The notes below the pieces were generated by a model. That model had not been told where the DNA came from, did no database searches, and worked only from the letters and a program-made list of their open reading frames with translations. The translations under genes and the position numbers were made by a program. A DNA stretch of 14,395 bases from a virus (taxonomy: Duplodnaviria > Heunggongvirae > Uroviricota > Caudoviricetes): IMG/VR virus record IMGVR_UViG_2671180986_000005, one strand, 5' to 3'. Numbering within the stretch: position 1 is the first letter of the stretch; the number at the start of each line of letters is the position of its first letter. This document shows, piece after piece, positions 1 through 14,395 of this stretch.

Positions 1-2353
1 CATCGCCTGCTTCAGAAAAATCTCTGTCAGCATGGACAGCACAGAACGGGTGAAACCACGCCAGTTCTGTTCGCTGCCGATCAGCATCGCTGCCATATTC
101 TGTGCAATACCGTCAAAGGTCTGCGTGGCCGCGTTTTTAACCTGCGAAAAACTGTCCGTCGCACTTTCCGCCCACTCGCCCCAGCCGGACTTCATCCCGG
201 CCATCCAGCTTCCACGAAGCTGCTCCTCCGCAGACCAGGTGTTCTTCAGTGCAGATGTGGCCTTCGCCAGCGCAGCCGGATTATCACCGTACACCTCACG
301 AAGGCGCTGCTCTTCCGACTCCCGCTGCGCCTGACGGTCGGTGAGTCCGCGGGCTTTTGCGCTGATTGCCGCCTGCTTCGCGCTCTGCTGCTGTTCAAAC
401 CGCGCCGCCTGCTGTGCCAGCTCATTCAGCCGTTTCTGGTGTTCAATCTTGTCGCCCAGCTCAGCCAGCTGGCGTTTGTACTCCAGCGTTTCTTTCTCAT
501 GGGCCAGCAGGGATTTTTCCTGCTCAGATAACTGCCGTTTCGTGGCGGCCTCTTTCAGGACCACATACTGATTTTCCGCTTTCCATAAATCACGGCGCTG
601 CTGGCTGATTTTTTCATTCGCACCGCTGTGCTTCTCCAGCGTCCTGAGCTCAGTTTCAAGCGCCAGCAGGGCTGCATGCGCCTGGTCTTCCTGGCGCTCA
701 CCGGCAGACACCTTCACACCGGACGGCTTTTTCTGCGTCGACTCATAATCCTTTTTTGNNNNNNNNNNNNNNNNNNNNNNNNNNNNNNNNNNNNNNNNNN
801 NNNNNNNNNNNNNNNNNNNNNNNNNNNNNNNNNNNNNNNNNNNNNNNNNNNNNNNNNNNNNNNNNNNNNNNNNNNNNNNNNNNNNNNNNNNNNNNNNNNN
901 NNNNNNNNNNNNNNNNNNNNNNNNNNNNNNNNNNNNNNNNNNNNNNNNNNNNNNNNNNNNNNNNNNNNNNNNNNNNNNNNNNNNNNNNNNNNNNNNNNNN
1001 NNNNNNNNNNNNNNNNNNNNNNNNNNNNNNNNNNNNNNNNNNNNNNNNNNNNNNNNNNNNNNNNNNNNNNNNNNNNNNNNNNNNNNNNNNNNNNNNNNNN
1101 NNNNNNNNNNNNNNNNNNNNNNNNNNNNNNNNNNNNNNNNNNNNNNNNNNNNNNNNNNNNNNNNNNNNNNNNNNNNNNNNNNNNNNNNNNNNNNNNNNNN
1201 NNNNNNNAGCATATCCGCTGAGGATTCCGGACGACCGATATCCAGAATGGCATNNNNNNNNNNNNNNNNNNNNNNNNNNNNNNNNNNNNNNNNNNNNNNN
1301 NNNNNNNNNNNNNNNNNNNNNNNNNNNNNNNNNNNNNNNNNNNNNNNNNNNNNNNNNNNNNNNNNNNNNNNNNNNNNNNNNNNNNNNNNNNNNNNNNNNN
1401 NNNNNNNNNNNNNNNNNNNNNNNNNNNNNNNNNNNNNNNNNNNNNNNNNNNNNNNNNNNNNNNNNNNNNNNNNNNNNNNNNNNNNNNNNNNNNNNNNNNN
1501 NNNNNNNNNNNNNNNNNNNNNNNNNNNNNNNNNNNNNNNNNNNNNNNNNNNNNNNNNNNNNNNNNNNNNNNNNNNNNNNNNNNNNNNNNNNNNNNNNNNN
1601 NNNNNNNNNNNNNNNNNNNNNNNNNNCGGCATTCACCANNNNNNNNNNNNNNNNNNNNNNNNNNNNNNNNNNNNNNNNNNNNNNNNNNNNNNNNNNNNNN
1701 NNNNNNNNNNNNNNNNNNNNNNNNNNNNNNNNNNNNNNNNNNNNNNNNNNNNNNNNNNNNNNNNNNNNNNNNNNNNNNNNNNNNNNNNNNNNNNNNNNNN
1801 NNNNNNNNNNNNNNNNNNNNNNNNNNNNNNNNNNNNNNNNNNACAGGACCAGCATACGATCTGCCGTCAGTCCCGCCTGATTACCGGAAAGGACCAGCGT
1901 TTTGTTGAAATCGGACAGGGTTGAGTTGCCCTGATACCAGGCATACGCCAGCGCACCGGTCGCCACCGCCAGCGAGGTGGCCCCCACCATCGGCAGGGTG
2001 ATCGCGCCGGCAAGCCCCCTGAACATGGGGATCATCCCGCCGAAGGAGTCCTTAACCTGACCACCCTGTTGCAGCAGGATCAGCCAGGGATTCTGCCCCC
2101 CTGCAAGCTGCGTGGCCACGTCGGTGAACTGTGCAGGCAGCATACGCATGGCGGCTTTATACTGCCCGACGGAAATCCCCGCTTTCTGTGCAGCCAGCGC
2201 CTGTCGGCTCAGCGACTGTTCAACGACTGCCGCTGTTTTTTTCGCATCACTTTCCGTACCGGAAAAATGACGCCTGACTCTGGCCATCTGCTCGTCAAAT
2301 CTGGCCGCATCCAGACTCAAATCAACGACCAGATCGCCTACCGGTTCAGCCAT
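1..2353 (-). CDS. H: tail tape measure protein (lambda gpH-like); C-terminus beyond window start, interior masked
   Basis: ATG at 2353-2351; the unmasked first 170 aa (MAEPVGDLVVDLSLDAARFDEQ...LTADRMLVL) match my memory of lambda gpH. The start overlaps the end of the T frame by 8 nt as in lambda. Coiled-coil-like coding continues in unmasked 1-758 (e.g. KKDYESTQKKPSGVKVSAGERQ) but in a different absolute frame than the N-terminus, so frame continuity through the masked blocks is unverified. Confidence 0.8.
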
Positions 2354-4343: not shown

Positions 4344-4918
4344 CGCTTTATTACCATTCTCAGTTGATGCTGCAGCGCATAGCCCAGCTCTTTCGGAAGA
4401 CGTTCACGCCGTATCCGTTCAATATTCTGTTTAAACGCCGTGGTCAGCGGCACCGCCATCGGGATTTTCACCACATCAATGGGGTAACGGTTTTTCCCGG
4501 CCACACGCTGCATAACATGCCACCGGCCGTTTTTCAGTTGCTGAATAAACGCGCCGGGAATACGACGGTTACCCACCACAAGCACGCTGCCGCCNNNNNN
4601 NNNNNNNNNNNNNNNNNNNNNNNNNNNNNNNNNNNNNNNNNNNNNNNNNNNNNNNNNNNNNNNNNNNNNNNNNNNNNNNNNNNNNNNNNNNNNNNNNNNN
4701 NNNNNNNNNNNNNNNNNNNNNNNNNNNNNNNNNNNNNNNNNNNNNNNNNNNNNNNNNNNNNNNNNNNNNNNNNNNNNNNNNNNNNNNNNNNNNNNNNNNN
4801 NNNNNNNNNNNNNNNNNNNNNNNNNNNNNNNNNNNNNNNNNNNNNNNNNNNNNNNNNNNNNNNNNNNNNNNNNNNNNNNNNNNNNNNNNNNNNNNNNNNN
4901 NNNNNNNNNNNNNNNNNN
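4340..4918 (-). CDS. Z: tail completion protein gpZ; start lies in masked block, start coordinate estimated from lambda length (192 aa)
   Basis: Unmasked C-terminal ~84 aa (...[80 protein letters not shown]); stop at 4340-4342 overlaps the U start. Confidence 0.75.
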   Translation of the reverse strand, partial: XXXXXXXXXXXXXXXXXXXXXXXXXXXXXXXXXXXXXXXXXXXXXXXXXXXXXXXXXXXXXXXXXXXXXXXXXXXXXXXXXXXXXXXXXXXXXXXXXXXXXXXXXXXXGGSVLVVGNRRIPGAFIQQLKNGRWHVMQRVAGKNRYPIDVVKIPMAVPLTTAFKQNIERIRRERLPKELGYALQHQLRMVIKR

Positions 4919-5070
4919 NNNNNNNNNNNNNNNNNNNNNNNNNNNNNNNNNNNNNNNNNNNNNNNNNNNNNNNNNNNNNNNNNNNNNNNNNNNNNNNNNN
5001 NNNNNNNNNNNNNNNNNNNNNNNNNNNNNNNNNNNNNNNNNNNNNNNNNNNNNNNNNNNNNNNNNNNNNN

Positions 5071-5424
5071 NNNNNNNNNNNNNNNNNNNNNNNNNNNNNN
5101 NNNNNNNNNNNNNNNNNNNNNNNAACTTCCGCCATCATCCGGCGAAACCCGATCTACCCAGAAATTTTCCTCACCGATGGTCAGCGTGTCTCCACGCCGC
5201 AGCTGCCGCACCTCATCAGTCCGGACAAACAGGGACGGGCTGGAGCCTTCAACGCGCACGCCCTGTCCGGCATAGCTGATATTTTCAGGGTCATCAAAAA
5301 CACCACGTATCACCGCACCTGACTGCTCACCGGATGTCATGGTGGCTGACGTTCCCATGTACCCGCGTATCGTTTCATCGGCGCGGGCAATGGCAGCATC
5401 GAACAGGTTATCGAAATCAGCCAC
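5071..5424 (-). CDS. FII: head-tail joining protein gpFII; 3' end lies in masked block, end coordinate estimated from lambda length (117 aa)
   Basis: Unmasked N-terminal 100 aa MADFDNLFDAAIARADETIRGYMGTSA...VDRVSPDDGGS; ATG at 5424, 11 nt after the FI stop as in lambda. Confidence 0.8.
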
Positions 5425-5435
5425 AGCGCCTCCCG

Positions 5436-5834
5436 TTATTGCATTCTGGCCAGGCCGCGCTCTGTCATTTCGGCTGCCACACCGGCAGAGACACGAAACG
5501 CCGTTCCCGGCAGCACAAATGCCACAGGTTTATCCCGCGTGGCGTGAAGTGCATCAGTATGCAGCGTCACCAGTGCCACGACCGTGACCAGTTCAGCCGT
5601 ATCCTGAATCACGGTATCCGGCTGCGCTGATACCACCTCATTTTCATGCCCGGTCAGCACATTTTCCCGGCTGAGAGGGGTGTCCTGACCGGCAGTTTCA
5701 TCCGTGTCATCAAGCTCTTCTTCCAGCTCTGCCACACGAAGCGCCAGTTCTTCTTTCGTTCCCGTCAAACTGACATCGCGGTTCAATTGCTCACCCAGCT
5801 CCTGAAGACGGGCAATCAGTTCATCTTTCGTCAT
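5436..5834 (-). CDS. FI: DNA packaging / head assembly protein gpFI
   Basis: 132 aa from the ATG at 5834 (MTKDELIARLQELGEQLNRDVSLTGTKEELALRVAELEEEL...); the track ORF starts earlier at a non-ATG codon. GGAGG Shine-Dalgarno upstream. Confidence 0.9.
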   Translation of the reverse strand: MTKDELIARLQELGEQLNRDVSLTGTKEELALRVAELEEELDDTDETAGQDTPLSRENVLTGHENEVVSAQPDTVIQDTAELVTVVALVTLHTDALHATRDKPVAFVLPGTAFRVSAGVAAEMTERGLARMQ

Positions 5835-5846
5835 GAACTCCTCCAC

Positions 5847-5871
5847 AGAGAGAAAATGGCCCCGAAGGGCC
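5847..5871 (-). terminator. terminator-like hairpin in E-FI intergenic region (GGCCC-UUCG-GGGCC followed by U-rich tract)
   Basis: Minus-strand sequence after the E stop: tcatggcccttcggggccattttctctct; 5-bp GC stem with UUCG tetraloop and a U-rich tail. Likely an attenuator or mRNA-stability element in the late operon. Confidence 0.45.
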
Positions 5872-5875
5872 ATGA

Positions 5876-6901
5876 TTACGCCAGTTGAACGGACACGAAC
5901 TCATCAGGATCAGCCAGCAGCATCAGCGGTGCTGACTGAATCATGGTGAACTCACGCGCCGGATCGCCGGTGGTCACCCAGTTTTTCGGGTAACGGGCAG
6001 AGGCGTTAATGCCTTCGCGCTGTGCGTCCGCATCCTGAATGCAGCCATAGGTGCGCAGACCGCGAGCCTGAGTGTTCCCCAGCACCATCGTGTTGTCCGG
6101 CAGGAAGTTCTTTTTGACGCCGTTTTCCACGTACTGTCCGGAATACACGACGATGGCCACATCGCCATACATTCCCTTATAGGACACCGCTTTGCCCAGG
6201 TCTTTTACCGCTGTCTCCAGCTCGGAATGAGAGCCGCGACGGGTATCCAGCTTCTCCTTGACGGCTTTGAAGGAACGGAACAGCGCCCAGCCTTTCGGGT
6301 CAAACACGATGATATTCACCACACCGCTGGCGTTCAGCGCGTAGGCTTCGATATCGTCGGTCGGGTCATACGTGGACTTGTCACGCTTGCTCCACTCCGT
6401 GACGCCGGACTGTGTGATGTTGTTCGCCGCACTGCGGCCCATATCCACCTCAACCGGATCGAAGGCTTCACCGGTCATGGTGTATTTGCCCTTGAGCACG
6501 GCAGAAACTGCCTGCATCTCTTCGACCTGAGCAATGGCCAGCTCTTCGTCACGCATGTTCTGCATGATGATGCGACGGCGGCGGTAAGCCGGGTCCGCCA
6601 GATTCTGCGGATCTTCATCCGGCAGGCGACGCAGGGTCATCTGCGGATTCACCTCATGCTTGGGTTTGACATATCCCGGCGTAAATTCAGAGGTGGAGCC
6701 GCCACGGGAACGGATAACCTCACCGGAAACAATCGGCGAAACGTACAGCGCCATGTTTACCAGTCCCGGAATTTGTGAGAGATAGACTTTCTCCGTAGTG
6801 AAGGGATAGCTCTCACGGAAAAAGAGACGCAGAAACAGCGGATCAAACTTAAATTTCTGCTCATTTGCCGCCAGCAGCTGGGCGGTTGTGTACATCGACA
6901 T
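5876..6901 (-). CDS. E: major capsid protein gpE (HK97-fold)
   Basis: 341 aa from the ATG at 6901 (MSMYTTAQLLAANEQKFKFDPLFLRLFFRESYPF...SAPLMLLADPDEFVSVQLA); the track ORF is extended upstream by a non-ATG start. Confidence 0.93.
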   Translation of the reverse strand: MSMYTTAQLLAANEQKFKFDPLFLRLFFRESYPFTTEKVYLSQIPGLVNMALYVSPIVSGEVIRSRGGSTSEFTPGYVKPKHEVNPQMTLRRLPDEDPQNLADPAYRRRRIIMQNMRDEELAIAQVEEMQAVSAVLKGKYTMTGEAFDPVEVDMGRSAANNITQSGVTEWSKRDKSTYDPTDDIEAYALNASGVVNIIVFDPKGWALFRSFKAVKEKLDTRRGSHSELETAVKDLGKAVSYKGMYGDVAIVVYSGQYVENGVKKNFLPDNTMVLGNTQARGLRTYGCIQDADAQREGINASARYPKNWVTTGDPAREFTMIQSAPLMLLADPDEFVSVQLA

Positions 6902-6956: not shown

Positions 6957-7289
6957 TTAAACGATGCTGATTGCCGTTCCGGCAAACGCGGTCCGTTTTT
7001 TCGTCTCGTCGCTGGCAGCCTCCGGCCAGAGCACATCCTCATAACGGAACGTGCCGGACTTGTAGAACGTCAGTGTGGTGCTGGTCTGGTCAGCAGCAAC
7101 CGCAAGAATGCCAACGGCAGCACCGTCGGTGGTGCCATCCCACGCAACCAGCTTACGGGTGGAGGTGTCCAGCATCAGCGGGGTCATTGCAGGCGCTTTC
7201 GCACTCAATCCGCCGGGCGCGGTTGCGGTATGAGCCGGGTCACTATTGCCCAGCGGCTGGTAATGGGNNNNNNNNNNNNNNNNNNNNNN
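6957..7289 (-). CDS. D: head decoration protein gpD; first ~7 codons lie in masked block, start estimated from 110-aa lambda length
   Basis: Unmasked portion reads ...[82 protein letters not shown]; stop at 6957-6959; 56-nt gap to the E start as in lambda. Confidence 0.85.
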
Positions 7290-7298
7290 NNNNNNNNN

Positions 7299-7941
7299 NN
7301 NNNNNNNNNNNNNNNNNNNNNNNNNNNNNNNNNNNNNNNNNNNNNNNNNNNNNNNNNNNNNNNNNNNNNNNNNNNNNNNNNNNNNNNNNNNNNNNNNNNN
7401 NNNNNNNNNNNNNNNNNNNNNNNNNNNNNNNNNNNNNNNNNNNNNNNNNNNNNNNNNNNNNNNNNNNNNNNNNNNNNNNNNNNNNNNNNNNNNNNNNNNN
7501 NNNNNNNNNNNNNNNNNNNNNNNNNNNNNNNNNNNNNNNNNNNNNNNNNNNNNNNNNNNNNNNNNNNNNNNNNNNNNNNNNNNNNNNNNNNNNNNNNNNN
7601 NNNNNNNNNNNNNNNNNNNNNNNNNNNNNNNNNNNNNNNNNNNNNNNNNNNNNCGTCGCTTGCACCACGCCAGTAACGTCAGCCTGCGAAGCAGTGGCTG
7701 AAACAGTTGTTGATTGAGTCTCTTTGGTCATTCGCCCTCCTGAGAGACGGGATTTACGTGCATCCAGTGCATCACGCATGACGGTGATCGCATCGGTACT
7801 GTTAACAAGTTCATCAGCCAGTCCGGCATCAATGGCCTCCTGACCGCTGTACACTGCAGCCTCGGTATCCAGCACAGCCTGCACGGACAGGCCGGTATAT
7901 GCCGACACCTTCTGTGCAAACATCCGGCGGGTTGCATCCAT
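7299..7941 (-). CDS. nu3: scaffolding protein Nu3, internal in-frame start within the C reading frame (position inferred from lambda Nu3 offset)
   Basis: In-frame Met (MDATRRMFAQKVSAYTGLSV...) at the position corresponding to the lambda Nu3 start as I recall it; the C-terminal part is masked. Confidence 0.45.
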
Positions 7942-8346: not shown

Positions 8347-8616
8347 CCCCGAGTACGGCTGACCAGCGTGCCGGACACCGGCAGCACGGCGATGCCGTTC
8401 ATTACCTGATAACTGCGGGCCTGTCGTGGTCCGTCATCATCACCGGATAACGCCAGCGCCGCGGGTGCCTCTCCGGCAGTCAGGCTGTCGCCGGATACTG
8501 CATCCGTCAGGCAGCTGATCCCAAGCTGGCCTGCAAGCGCACAAAAGAAAACCCGCGCATAGGCGGGTTCAAGCATCAGCGGCTCATTAAAAGCCNNNNN
8601 NNNNNNNNNNNNNNNN

Positions 8617-8636
<20 letters not shown>
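8343..8636 (-). CDS. C: gpC N-terminal fragment upstream of the frameshift; start in masked block, estimated
   Basis: Unmasked ...AFNEPLMLEPAYARVFFCALAGQLGISCLTDAVSGDSLTAGEAPAALALSGDDDGPRQARSYQVMNGIAVLPVSGTLVSRTRG then TGA at 8343-8345, overlapping the ATG of the downstream fragment (ATGA). Confidence 0.7.
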
Positions 8637-12380
<3,744 letters not shown>

Positions 12381-12406
<26 letters not shown>

Positions 12407-12926
12407 TCAGCAACCCCGGTATCAGTTCATCCAGCGCGGCTGCTTTGTTCATGGCTTTGATGATATCCCGTTTCAGGAAATCAACATGTCGGTTTTCCAG
12501 TTCCGGAAAACGCCGCTGCACCGACAGGGGGATCCCGTCGAGAATACTGGCAATTTCACCTGCGATCCGCGACAGCACGAAAGTACAGAATGCGGTTTCC
12601 ACCACTTCAGCGGAGTCTCTGGCATTTTTCAGCTCCTGTGCGTCGGCCTGCGCACGCGTAAGTCGATGGCGTTCGTACTCAATAGTCCCTGGCTGGAGAT
12701 CTGTCTCGCTGGCCTGCCGCAGTTCTTCAACTTCCCGGCGCAGCTTTTCGTTCTCAATTTCAGCATCCCTTTCGGCATACCATCTTATAACGGCGGCAGA
12801 GTCATAAAGCACCTCATTACCCTTGCCACCGCCTCGCAGAACGGGCATTCCCTGTTCCTGCCAGTTCTGAATGGTACGGATACTCGCACCGAAAATGTCA
12901 GCCAGCTGCTTTTTGTTGACTTCCAT
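12381..12926 (-). CDS. nu1: terminase small subunit gpNu1 (winged-HTH cosB-binding)
   Basis: 181-aa ORF MEVNKKQLADIFGASIRTIQNWQEQGMPVLRGGGKGNEVLYDSAAVIRWYAERDAEIENEKL...; N-terminal HTH; located directly downstream of cosB. Confidence 0.95.
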
Positions 12927-13103
12927 TGTTCATTCCACGGACAAAAACAGAGAAAGGAAACGACAGAGGCCAAAAAGCCCGTTTTCAGCACCTGTCGTTT
13001 CCTTTCTTTTCAGGGGGTGTTTTAAATAAAAACATTAGGTTACGGCGAAGAAGAACGGAAACGCCTTAAACCGGAAAATTGTCATAAATAGCGAAAACCC
13101 GCG
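12927..13103 (-). promoter_or_regulatory. cosB: terminase Nu1-binding region with three R elements (core CGTTTCC), two in one orientation and one inverted
   Basis: Core GGAAACG/CGTTTCC occurs three times between cosN and the Nu1 ATG: about 12952-12966 (aggaaacgacag), about 12991-13006 (ctgtcgtttcctttc, inverted) and about 13053-13065 (gaacggaaacgcc). Arrangement as lambda R1, R2, R3. Confidence 0.65.
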
Positions 13104-13115
13104 CGCCTTCCGCCC
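13104..13115 (-). other. cosN (terminase nicking site, 12-nt cohesive-end sequence) with cosQ-side flank to about 13150
   Basis: Minus strand reads ...gatccgacaggttac GGGGCGGAAGGCG CGCGGGTTTTCGCTATTTATGA...; flanks on both sides match the lambda right end / left end junction as I recall it. Coordinates are within 1-2 nt. Confidence 0.7.
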
Positions 13116-13150
13116 CGTAACCTGTCGGATCGCCGGAAAGGACCCGCAAA

Positions 13151-13253
13151 ATGATAATAATTATCATCTACATGTCACAACGTGCATCTACGCCATCAAA
13201 CCACGTCAAATAATCAATTATGACGCAGGTATCGTATTAATTGATCTGCATCA
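13151..13253. repeat. cos-flank element copy 1 (~105 bp), begins with 17-bp palindrome ATGATAATAATTATCAT; runs into masked block
   Basis: Direct repeat with copy 2; last ~60 bp nearly identical (cgccatcaaaccacg..aaataatcaattatgacgcaggtatcgtattaattgatctgcatca). Reverse complement resembles the last ~110 bp of the lambda genome as I recall it. Confidence 0.7.
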
Positions 13254-13376
13254 NNNNNNNNNNNNNNNNNNNNNNNNNNNNNNNNNNNNNNNNNNNNNNN
13301 NNNNNNNNNNNNNNNNNNNNNNNNNNNNNNNNNNNNNNNNNNNNNNNNNNNNNNNNNNNNNNNNNNNNNNNACGAA

Positions 13377-13486
13377 ATGATAATTATTATCATCTATATA
13401 AGGTTTATCACAACATGTGTGTACGCCATCAAACCACGAGAAATAATCAATTATGACGCAGGTATCGTATTAATTGATCTGCATCA
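13377..13486. repeat. cos-flank element copy 2, begins with palindrome ATGATAATTATTATCAT
   Basis: About 85 percent identical to copy 1 with small indels in the middle; preceded by masked block 13254-13371. Confidence 0.7.
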
Positions 13487-13547: not shown

Positions 13548-13733
13548 ATGTCAACGAAGAACAGAACCCGCAGAACAACAACCCGCAACATCCGATTTCC
13601 AAACCAGATGATTGAACAAATTAACATCGCTCTTGATCTGAAAGGTTCAGGAAACTTTTCAGCGTGGGTTATTGAAGCCTGCAGAAGAAGGCTGTCAACA
13701 GAGAGTTCGGGTATGAATTACATAATTAAGTAA
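13548..13733 (+). CDS. small basic protein (61 aa) with ribbon-helix-helix-like pattern; possibly a YlcI/YnfO-type (DUF3950-like) cos-adjacent prophage protein
   Basis: ATG with AGGG 7 nt upstream; MSTKNRTRRTTTRNIRFPNQMIEQINIALDLKGSGNFSAWVIEACRRRLSTESSGMNYIIK: basic N-tail, then RNIRFP (beta strand), NQMIEQINIAL (helix), glycine turn, AWVIEACRRRL (helix), as in Arc/CopG-type proteins. Family assignment is from memory, not a search. Confidence 0.55.
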   Translation: MSTKNRTRRTTTRNIRFPNQMIEQINIALDLKGSGNFSAWVIEACRRRLSTESSGMNYIIK

Positions 13734-13847
13734 CATGGTGTTCACAGAACACGCAGTTACCGGACACATCAGTTTTCCATTCGCTCCCTGGCAGTACAGG
13801 CTTCCCCTCTGACGGGATAGCCTGAAAAAATAACACAGAAAATTATT

Positions 13848-13856
13848 TGTTATAAT
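13848..13856 (+). promoter_or_regulatory. candidate extended -10 promoter (TGtTATAAT) without a clear -35
   Basis: tgt tataat at 13848-13856 within the AT-rich ORF-poor region; a transcript from about 13863 would be antisense to the small minus-strand ORF at 13866-13997. Confidence 0.25.
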
Positions 13857-14395
13857 TAATATAACTTACTCAAAAAAAAGCGACGAGAAAATCAGCATCA
13901 ACGAACAATAAGCGCCAATACGTGATAACAAATGGCAGCCATATTTATCTGCAGTATAAGCAATGGACAGGATAACCACACCAGAAACCGTCAGCATAAA
14001 ATCCATTTGAACTTCCCCGGACAAAATCGACTCATCTAAAGATTTACAGCTCTTTTTATTATTAATATGTTAAAAGCAAAATAAACAGATGTTCAATAAC
14101 ACGAATACAAAAACGTGCTGAAATTCAATGAATCCATTTCTGTGTCATCAATTAATAGTGATAAACATCCGGCTTCTTCCACCATCGCACCGGACAGGCG
14201 ACTATGAGGGGACAACGCCGCGCTCCGTTAACGCGGTAAACCCCGGTGTGTATCGTTTTTGATTATCCCCGCACACTCGCGCAGAGGAGTCTCCCTGTCG
14301 GGCTGCGGTCTCTGTTAATGAGGGAATACAGCGACGATACGGCGCATTGAGGTGTACTGGCAATAGCGGACACTACCATTTGTTCTTTTTTTAAG

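Follow-up and report, generated by a model that had tools for sequence, protein, structure and literature searches.

The prophages of Escherichia coli K-12 carry, next to the Nu1 homologue, a small gene known as ylcI in DLP12 and ynfO in Qin, and phage lambda has a 64-aa open reading frame (ORF) of the same family between cos and the ybcW-like gene lambdap79. This is among the few conserved lambda genes to which no function has been assigned. Most E. coli genomes have it, frequently more than once, and Shiga toxin (Stx)-converting phages carry it too. We have analyzed a member of this family found near one end of the IMG/VR virus record IMGVR_UViG_2671180986_000005, a stretch of 14,395 nucleotides assigned to the Caudoviricetes (from here on the window) that corresponds to a lambda-like prophage read in reverse orientation. 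The gene, located at 13548-13733 on the + strand, is like YlcI, YnfO and the lambda ORF in family, in its position at the side of Nu1 and in orientation. We consider, with a probability of about 0.6, that its product is a small ribbon-helix-helix (RHH) DNA-binding protein that would act as a dimer, read repeated sites through its N-terminal arm and repress transcription.

Several described systems can be compared with this locus. The P22 repressors Arc and Mnt, and also CopG, are alike in size and in the strand-helix-helix order predicted here, and the sites found in the satellite relatives described below share with theirs the pattern of phased short repeats placed over promoters. Unlike these repressors, the window gene lies outside the phage immunity region. 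The lambda morons bor and lom are similarly located between the lysis genes and cos and run against late transcription. This bor-like orientation had been pointed out in a first-pass annotation, made from the letters of the window alone, and the gene order bears it out. In contrast to bor and lom, the gene does not code for an envelope or virulence protein and is much more widely conserved, since lambda, the Stx phages and prophages with HK97-like packaging genes all have it. A third term of comparison are the master repressors of satellites and related immunity systems (Stl of the Staphylococcus aureus pathogenicity islands, the CI RNA of P4 and the c4-icd-ant system of P1 immI). The satellite homologues of the window gene are likewise divergent from a replication operon led by an icd-like gene and have operator-like repeats over the promoters, but they would belong to a different protein class, an RHH protein of ~60 aa. 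For the Gram negative phage-inducible chromosomal islands (PICIs), the literature consulted deals with the Bro zone and with immunity RNAs, and not with a DUF3950 protein (PMC10111431).

A conserved protein-coding gene at the lysis/packaging boundary

The ORF starts with ATG and codes for 61 aa (the coordinates include the stop codon). The protein matched Pfam DUF3950 (PF13132) over residues 21-49 with 67.5 bits (E 9e-19; gathering score 25 bits), the NCBIfam model NF041551 (YlcI_YnfO_N) with 35.2 bits (cut-off 30 bits) and PHROG 949 with an E of 6e-32. NCBI holds an identical protein, named YlcI/YnfO family protein, found in 56 contigs and belonging to a 90% cluster of 753 members, and the near-identical WP_001329960.1 is given the same name by RefSeq. 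The gene is already catalogued and, its protein being identical to known sequences, the window itself encodes nothing new. Residues 1-50 are 83-98% identical to YlcI of DLP12, YnfO of Qin and the lambda ORF, and at the protein level the divergence from lambda is confined to the tail beyond residue ~50, which is STESSGMNYIIK in the window as against TSEKRAYTSIKSDEE in lambda and YlcI; the 77-aa form ends in a tail of 27 residues. When codons 1-50 were compared with lambda, the proportion of synonymous differences (pS) was 0.49 and that of non-synonymous ones (pN) 0.035, with 18 of the 25 variable sites at third codon positions. The reading frame was unbroken in all of the 47 related loci inspected. 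Because of the family matches, the low pN relative to pS and the intact frame, we conclude that this is a genuine protein-coding gene under strong purifying selection, and neither a chance ORF nor a remnant.

The first-pass annotation had described an ORF of 61 aa running against the late genes and pointing away from cos, which agrees with the ORF listing. It had also noted a resemblance to the DUF3950-type YlcI/YnfO proteins encoded beside Nu1 homologues and proposed a Pfam search; the significant Pfam match, together with the NCBIfam and PHROG matches and the gene order of lambda and E. coli, confirmed it. The concern that the ORF could be what is left of a longer disrupted gene proved unfounded, with the full domain (residues 1-50) intact and under selection. 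The same data bear on an explanation at the RNA level, by which transcription of the gene would form an excludon or antisense barrier against the late operon and the protein would be secondary, or the ORF would be decaying. The K-12 ylcI has been reported to overlap ybcW convergently, and the window gene has a 3' end that substitutes for that of lambda, both of which would fit. However, the amino-acid sequence is under selection, its core is kept across genera down to ~35-40% identity and the mRNA fold of the ORF is unremarkable (z -1.5), so that we give this explanation very little credit.

Members of the family are found in three contexts: lambdoid prophages, satellites and chromosomal orphans. 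In the lambdoid prophages the gene sits at the boundary between lysis and packaging modules, on the opposite strand, adjoining cos and a Nu1 gene of which two allele types are found. In a second lambdoid class (class 2) it is divergent, at ~50 bp, from the HNH endonuclease of a HK97-like packaging module.

Predicted fold of the protein

The AlphaFold2 (AF2) monomer model has an extended N-terminus followed by helices at residues 19-32 and 37-55; the strand itself cannot be scored in a monomer. In the window the basic N-terminal arm with the putative beta-strand (TTTRNIRF), extended in the model, corresponds to codons 1-17 (13548-13598, + strand). The conserved core, delimited by the model and by two alignments (A1, 21 sequences; A3, 48 sequences), covers codons 19-55 (13602-13712, + strand) and consists of helix A (19-32), a GSGNFS turn and helix B (37-55). 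The turn, reading KGSGNFS, offers an N/S cap ahead of helix B, and the strand-helix-turn-helix topology fits an RHH domain of ~45 residues. The core motif IRFP..LIE.I..NFSAWV..AC has invariant columns in both alignments. Specifically, I15, R16, F17, F37, S38, W40, V41 and C45 do not vary in the 48 sequences of A3, and all eight are present in the window protein.

A Foldseek search with the AF2 model retrieved almost exclusively RHH proteins, Arc being the best and VapB, ParD and MazE among the others, although none of these matches was statistically significant. We also ran hhalign with the family profile against the sequences of Arc and CopG. The register obtained puts T12, N14 and R16 over Q9, N11 and R13 of Arc, with a score that was not significant, and no significant similarity to Arc or CopG was detected in this way. 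Neither the protein nor the family profile retrieved anything useful from the PDB sequences. These results, together with the linkage caveat and the missing repeats of the HNH-type prophages (both below), are what speaks against an RHH repressor. The RHH-like character suggested in the first-pass annotation is nevertheless supported overall by the predicted order of the fold and by the mostly RHH neighbours, and on these models the product is most likely a repressor, a small RHH DNA-binding protein of the YlcI/YnfO family, with residues 12, 14 and 16 as the proposed DNA-reading positions.

Many small RHH proteins are antitoxins, and the structural neighbours VapB, ParD and MazE, together with weak HicB-like profile matches, could indicate an orphan RHH antitoxin or an anti-toxin decoy. 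The fold class predicted here is indeed shared with the type II antitoxins ParD, VapB, MazE9 and the C-terminal domain of HicB, to which the profile matches are weak. Unlike them, the window gene is not accompanied by a toxin gene, as had been remarked before: the only ORF downstream on the same (+) strand has 25 aa, and neither in the lambdoid prophages nor in the satellites or the chromosomal orphans did we find an adjacent toxin-sized partner. There is no conserved C-terminal toxin-binding segment either, the tail past residue ~50 being short (5-30 aa), unconserved across the family and unlike toxin-binding tails, and PADLOC gave no defence-system match for the window ORF. An antitoxin role seems to us highly improbable.

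In the mechanism that we favor for an RHH repressor, two subunits would pair their N-terminal strands (residues ~11-17, TTRNIRF) to form a beta-ribbon reading the major groove via residues 12, 14 and 16, and the two-helix core (IRFP..LIE.I / NFSAWV..AC) would make the dimer. Dimers would then occupy short repeated sites, and transcription would be repressed.

Repeats over the promoters of satellite relatives

The PICI/P4-like satellites that carry a divergent relative of the gene show the order integrase, AlpA, AntA, DUF3950 gene (on the opposite strand), Icd-like gene and D5-type primase, in agreement with the published layout of Gram negative PICIs (PMC10111431). One report lists YlcI/YnfO as present in capsid-forming PICIs (cf-PICIs) of Enterobacter. 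In 17 satellite loci, the gap of 100-160 bp between the DUF3950 gene and the leftward operon holds between two and four copies of a 12-mer with the form GTG-N6-CAC. Counting from the ATG, the copies are located near -99, -76 and -30, sometimes also at -123, with a phasing of 23 bp. The copy at -76 is always followed by GTCAA, which corresponds to the -35 box (TTGACG) of the leftward promoter (in locus L050 the promoter scan gave a leftward TTGACG-18-TATGGT), and the copy at -30 comes after the TATAGT-like -10 of the DUF3950 gene itself. The 12-mers are specific of each element and, within the 12-kb loci, essentially confined to this intergenic site. A second group of satellites has instead GGTA-NN-TACC palindromes at -44 and -10, and a PICI of Pasteurella reproduces the same plan of repeats and promoters.

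The distances between these operator-like repeats followed those between the 14 N-terminal residues of the proteins (Mantel r 0.74, p 2e-4), and residues 12 and 14 alone gave an r of 0.76. For the core the value was only 0.11, and the partial r for the arm was 0.73. Proteins with near-identical cores and differing arms have differing repeats. A caveat on this co-variation is linkage, since the arm codons are located 30-100 bp from the repeats. That the repeats co-vary with the N-terminal arm and not with the core would be expected of an arm or beta-strand that reads them, and suggests that in satellites the protein is a sequence-specific repressor acting on the divergent promoters. The sites (12 bp, GTG-N6-CAC, 23 bp apart) would overlap both the leftward icd-primase promoter and the -10 of the gene, and the satellite protein would act as an autoregulated repressor of the replication operon.

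The satellite relatives, their repeats and the co-variation with the arm are new here, and the repressor hypothesis is well supported for the satellites; for the prophage we infer it from them. In the window the gene runs counter to the late operon where the lysis and packaging modules meet, and the protein is probably a local autoregulated repressor working in the prophage state, which would imply expression in the lysogen. If this is true, the lysis/packaging boundary would have an additional prophage-state regulator, and the satellite relatives would be a missing piece in the silencing of the replication operon of Gram negative PICIs. The arm-operator co-variation would be a directly testable recognition code.

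The core is nearly invariant between the lambda-type and the satellite proteins and the arms differ, and lambdoid phages are known helpers of Gram negative PICIs (PMC10111431). Both facts would be compatible with a phage copy that forms mixed dimers with the satellite repressor, inactivating or reinforcing it, i.e., a cross-talk between helper and satellite. This idea is purely inferential and leaves without explanation the orphan copies and the prophages of genomes that possibly have no satellites, and we think it unlikely. Similarly doubtful is a more general version, in which the DUF3950 proteins would be the so far unrecognised repressors of the replication operons of Gram negative PICI/P4-like satellites, with an arm-operator code. 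The lambdoid copy would then mediate cross-talk by poisoning the satellite repressor or mimicking it, setting satellite induction or helper resistance.

Just upstream of the operator repeats all the satellite loci have a conserved hairpin followed by a T-tract (5810-5881, + strand, in L050; 4680-4720 in L088). It aligns over the full length of the Rfam SymR antisense RNA with a sub-threshold score of 37.8 bits (E 2.5e-5), and is antisense to the ribosome-binding site and start codon of the icd-like gene that opens the leftward operon. We take this SymR-like element as a probable regulatory RNA of the satellite, acting as an antisense in cis. At the gathering score, neither the window nor six satellite loci had any relevant Rfam match. 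Long ORFs antisense to the DUF3950 gene, which we called C0 (L044, L061, L069, L079 and others), were rejected as genes; we judge them to be shadow ORFs, open in the frame that shares its third codon positions and continuing into the genuine Icd-like gene. In the Pasteurella phage Pmp7 (L088, 4435-5109, - strand) such an artefact has been annotated as 'transcriptional repressor', and the 59-aa DUF3950 gene on the opposite strand is unannotated.

Palindromes upstream of the lambdoid genes

Two types of repeats detected by the repeat finder precede the gene in the window. The first is a 17-bp palindrome, ATGATAATTATTATCAT (ATGATAAT-N-ATTATCAT), at 13377-13393, ~155-170 bp upstream of the ATG of the ORF, with a cos-proximal copy at 13151-13167, beside cosQ, the centre of which lies at -233 relative to the Nu1 ATG. 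We rejected the palindrome as an RHH operator, given that a Fur box has been published at this site for nohA (-233, confirmed by gel-shift) and nohB (-133) (PMC2189734). A promoter-like GTGACA-16-TATCAT on the - strand (13178 to 13151) overlaps the cos-proximal copy, which suggests an iron-responsive promoter into cos/Nu1 or, alternatively, Fur control of the ylcI-type gene.

The second is the inverted repeat ATCAATTATGACG/CGTATTAATTGAT at 13446-13478, 70-102 bp upstream of the ATG, with another copy at 13213-13245 and a -10-like TATTAAT inside. The motif occurs five times, where 0.42 occurrences were expected. It is nearly invariant among 32 distinct upstream sequences of the cos/Nu1 type, a class in which the 115 bp upstream had three differences from lambda and the first 150 bp of the ORF 21. 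We regard it as the best operator candidate in cos/Nu1-type phages. However, the repeat is absent from the 14 distinct upstream sequences of class 2 (HNH-type), despite the shared TTRN (or TIRN) arm, and for this reason its operator role is putative.

Other candidates were discarded. The sequence 'CACGTCAA', common to lambda and satellites, is not kept in the repeat copy that adjoins the window ORF. TAACGTA, at about -58/-62 in both of the non-homologous lambdoid upstream classes, is suggestive, but is missing in three of the 14 class-2 sequences. A third ATCAATTAATA at 14147, considered as a distal operator, turned out to be the displaced remnant of a lambda-type 3' end (see below).

Neighbouring genes and the cos region

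On the - strand, the ORF listing gives the terminase A gene at 10481-12406 and, at 12381-12926, the terminase small subunit Nu1, 98.9-100% identical to Nu1/NohA-type proteins of E. coli and Shigella loci, given the same annotation in related records and divergent from the ORF across cos. By homology to lambda, the cos region would extend from 13030 to 13145, with the cosB side, the equivalent of cosN at ~13104-13115 and cosQ (AGGACCC) at 13139-13145. The 12-nt equivalent of the cohesive end (13104-13115, late strand), placed by alignment only, is GGGCGGAAGGCG as compared to GGGCGGCGACCT in lambda, so this cos variant may have a cohesive end unlike that of lambda. The E. coli genomes in RefSeq show the order DNA-packaging protein, YlcI/YnfO (on the other strand), small hypothetical protein and lysis protein, and a recent annotation of lambda places the 64-aa ORF, as a 'hypothetical protein', after Nu1/cos and before the ybcW-like gene.

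This neighbourhood could suggest a packaging accessory factor, that is, a cos-proximal DNA-binding protein that aids or modulates the terminase or blocks the packaging of competitors. The gene is always at the start of a packaging module, be it cos/Nu1 with its two Nu1 alleles or the HNH endonuclease of HK97-like modules, and in one satellite the homologue is joined to a weak Terminase_2-like helix-turn-helix (HTH) domain. However, most of the divergent homologues are far from any terminase, beside the replication operon of satellites or as chromosomal orphans, and the gene, being transcribed against the late operon, would not be co-expressed with the terminase. Besides, a cos fragment of ~200 bp is enough for lambda packaging. 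On balance a packaging function appears improbable to us.

Downstream of the gene, 5 bp past the stop codon, there is a perfect hairpin, GTGTTCACAGAACAC (13738-13752), found by the terminator scan on the - strand and by RNA folding, which is a possible bidirectional terminator between convergent genes. The promoter scan detected no + strand promoter upstream of the ORF. For K-12, RNA-seq compilations report ylcI as transcribed. The convergent gene is in the window a hydrophobic ORF of 45 aa (13866-14003, - strand), as against ybcW in lambda. The exact protein is present in NCBI, as 'hypothetical' in RefSeq, and had no match in Pfam, NCBIfam or PADLOC. It lies on a segment of ~450 bp (~13690-14145) that stands in for the lambda-type 3' end of the gene, and the displaced end persists as CATCAATTAATAGTGATAAACATCC near ~14145. 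A CRISPR interference study of essentiality covered lambdap79 and not the present ORF. The effect described for lambdap79 conflicts with its earlier classification as non-essential, and we interpret it as a polar effect that blocks late transcription.

Between cos and the ORF there is a masked run of 118 N (13254-13371), inside a pair of direct repeats (13149-13253 and 13375-13486) of ~105 bp with 92% identity and a 7-bp indel. Due to the masked run and the flanking repeat, the distance from Nu1 to the ORF is 622 bp, compared to 389 bp in reference genomes. Prophages with another terminase small subunit (TerS) allele match the ORF-proximal copy, and in them cos is located immediately to its left. 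The masked stretch may correspond to a true duplication, and could in view of this match hide a second cos, or else the assembly may have joined two prophages here. Six further runs of N are found in the window (759-1207, 1254-1626, 1639-1842, 4595-5123, 7268-7653 and 8596-9070).

Distribution of the family

The locus was detected in 4,176 of 5,426 complete E. coli genomes, at up to 12 places per genome. The family is nevertheless small, with 107 cluster representatives at E <= 1e-3 out of 1.84 billion scanned, and many of these 107 are error-ridden copies of lambda. The genuine members (taking one genome per species) belong to the Enterobacterales, plus one element of Pasteurella. Near-identical copies of the lambda region were found in assemblies of Streptomyces, Pseudomonas, Bacillales, Cohnella, Flavobacterium, Staphylococcus, a spider and others (L006-L039, L054, L062), and also among many ENA proteins. 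Many of these contigs are 3.5 kb long, which we take to be the size of the nanopore lambda control fragment, and many of the translated variants are frameshifts caused by sequencing errors. These copies are lambda control or spike-in contamination and not part of the true distribution.

Two fusions were observed. The one with the weak Terminase_2-like HTH is at 4714-5103 of satellite L083 (P0193). In the other (P0258; L084, 1274-1975), located beside Nu1 and belonging to a cluster of 761 sequences, DUF3950 is joined to DUF1398 (YbcV-like), although the locus is not an exact translation of the query and the fusion may be partly artefactual.

Chromosomal orphans were found in Pantoea (L060, L063-L065), Tatumella (L047, L052, L056, L078), Citrobacter (L068), Rouxiella (L040) and Salmonella (arizonae/diarizonae; L042, L043). 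They are solitary genes beside others of housekeeping type, in a position that is constant within each genus, and with no phage or satellite genes within 4 kb. The neighbours in Pantoea are a conserved gene pair, presumably cydDC, and those in Rouxiella resemble cytochrome bd genes. Directly upstream of the Salmonella and Citrobacter copies there are GTAAC/GTTAC palindromes.
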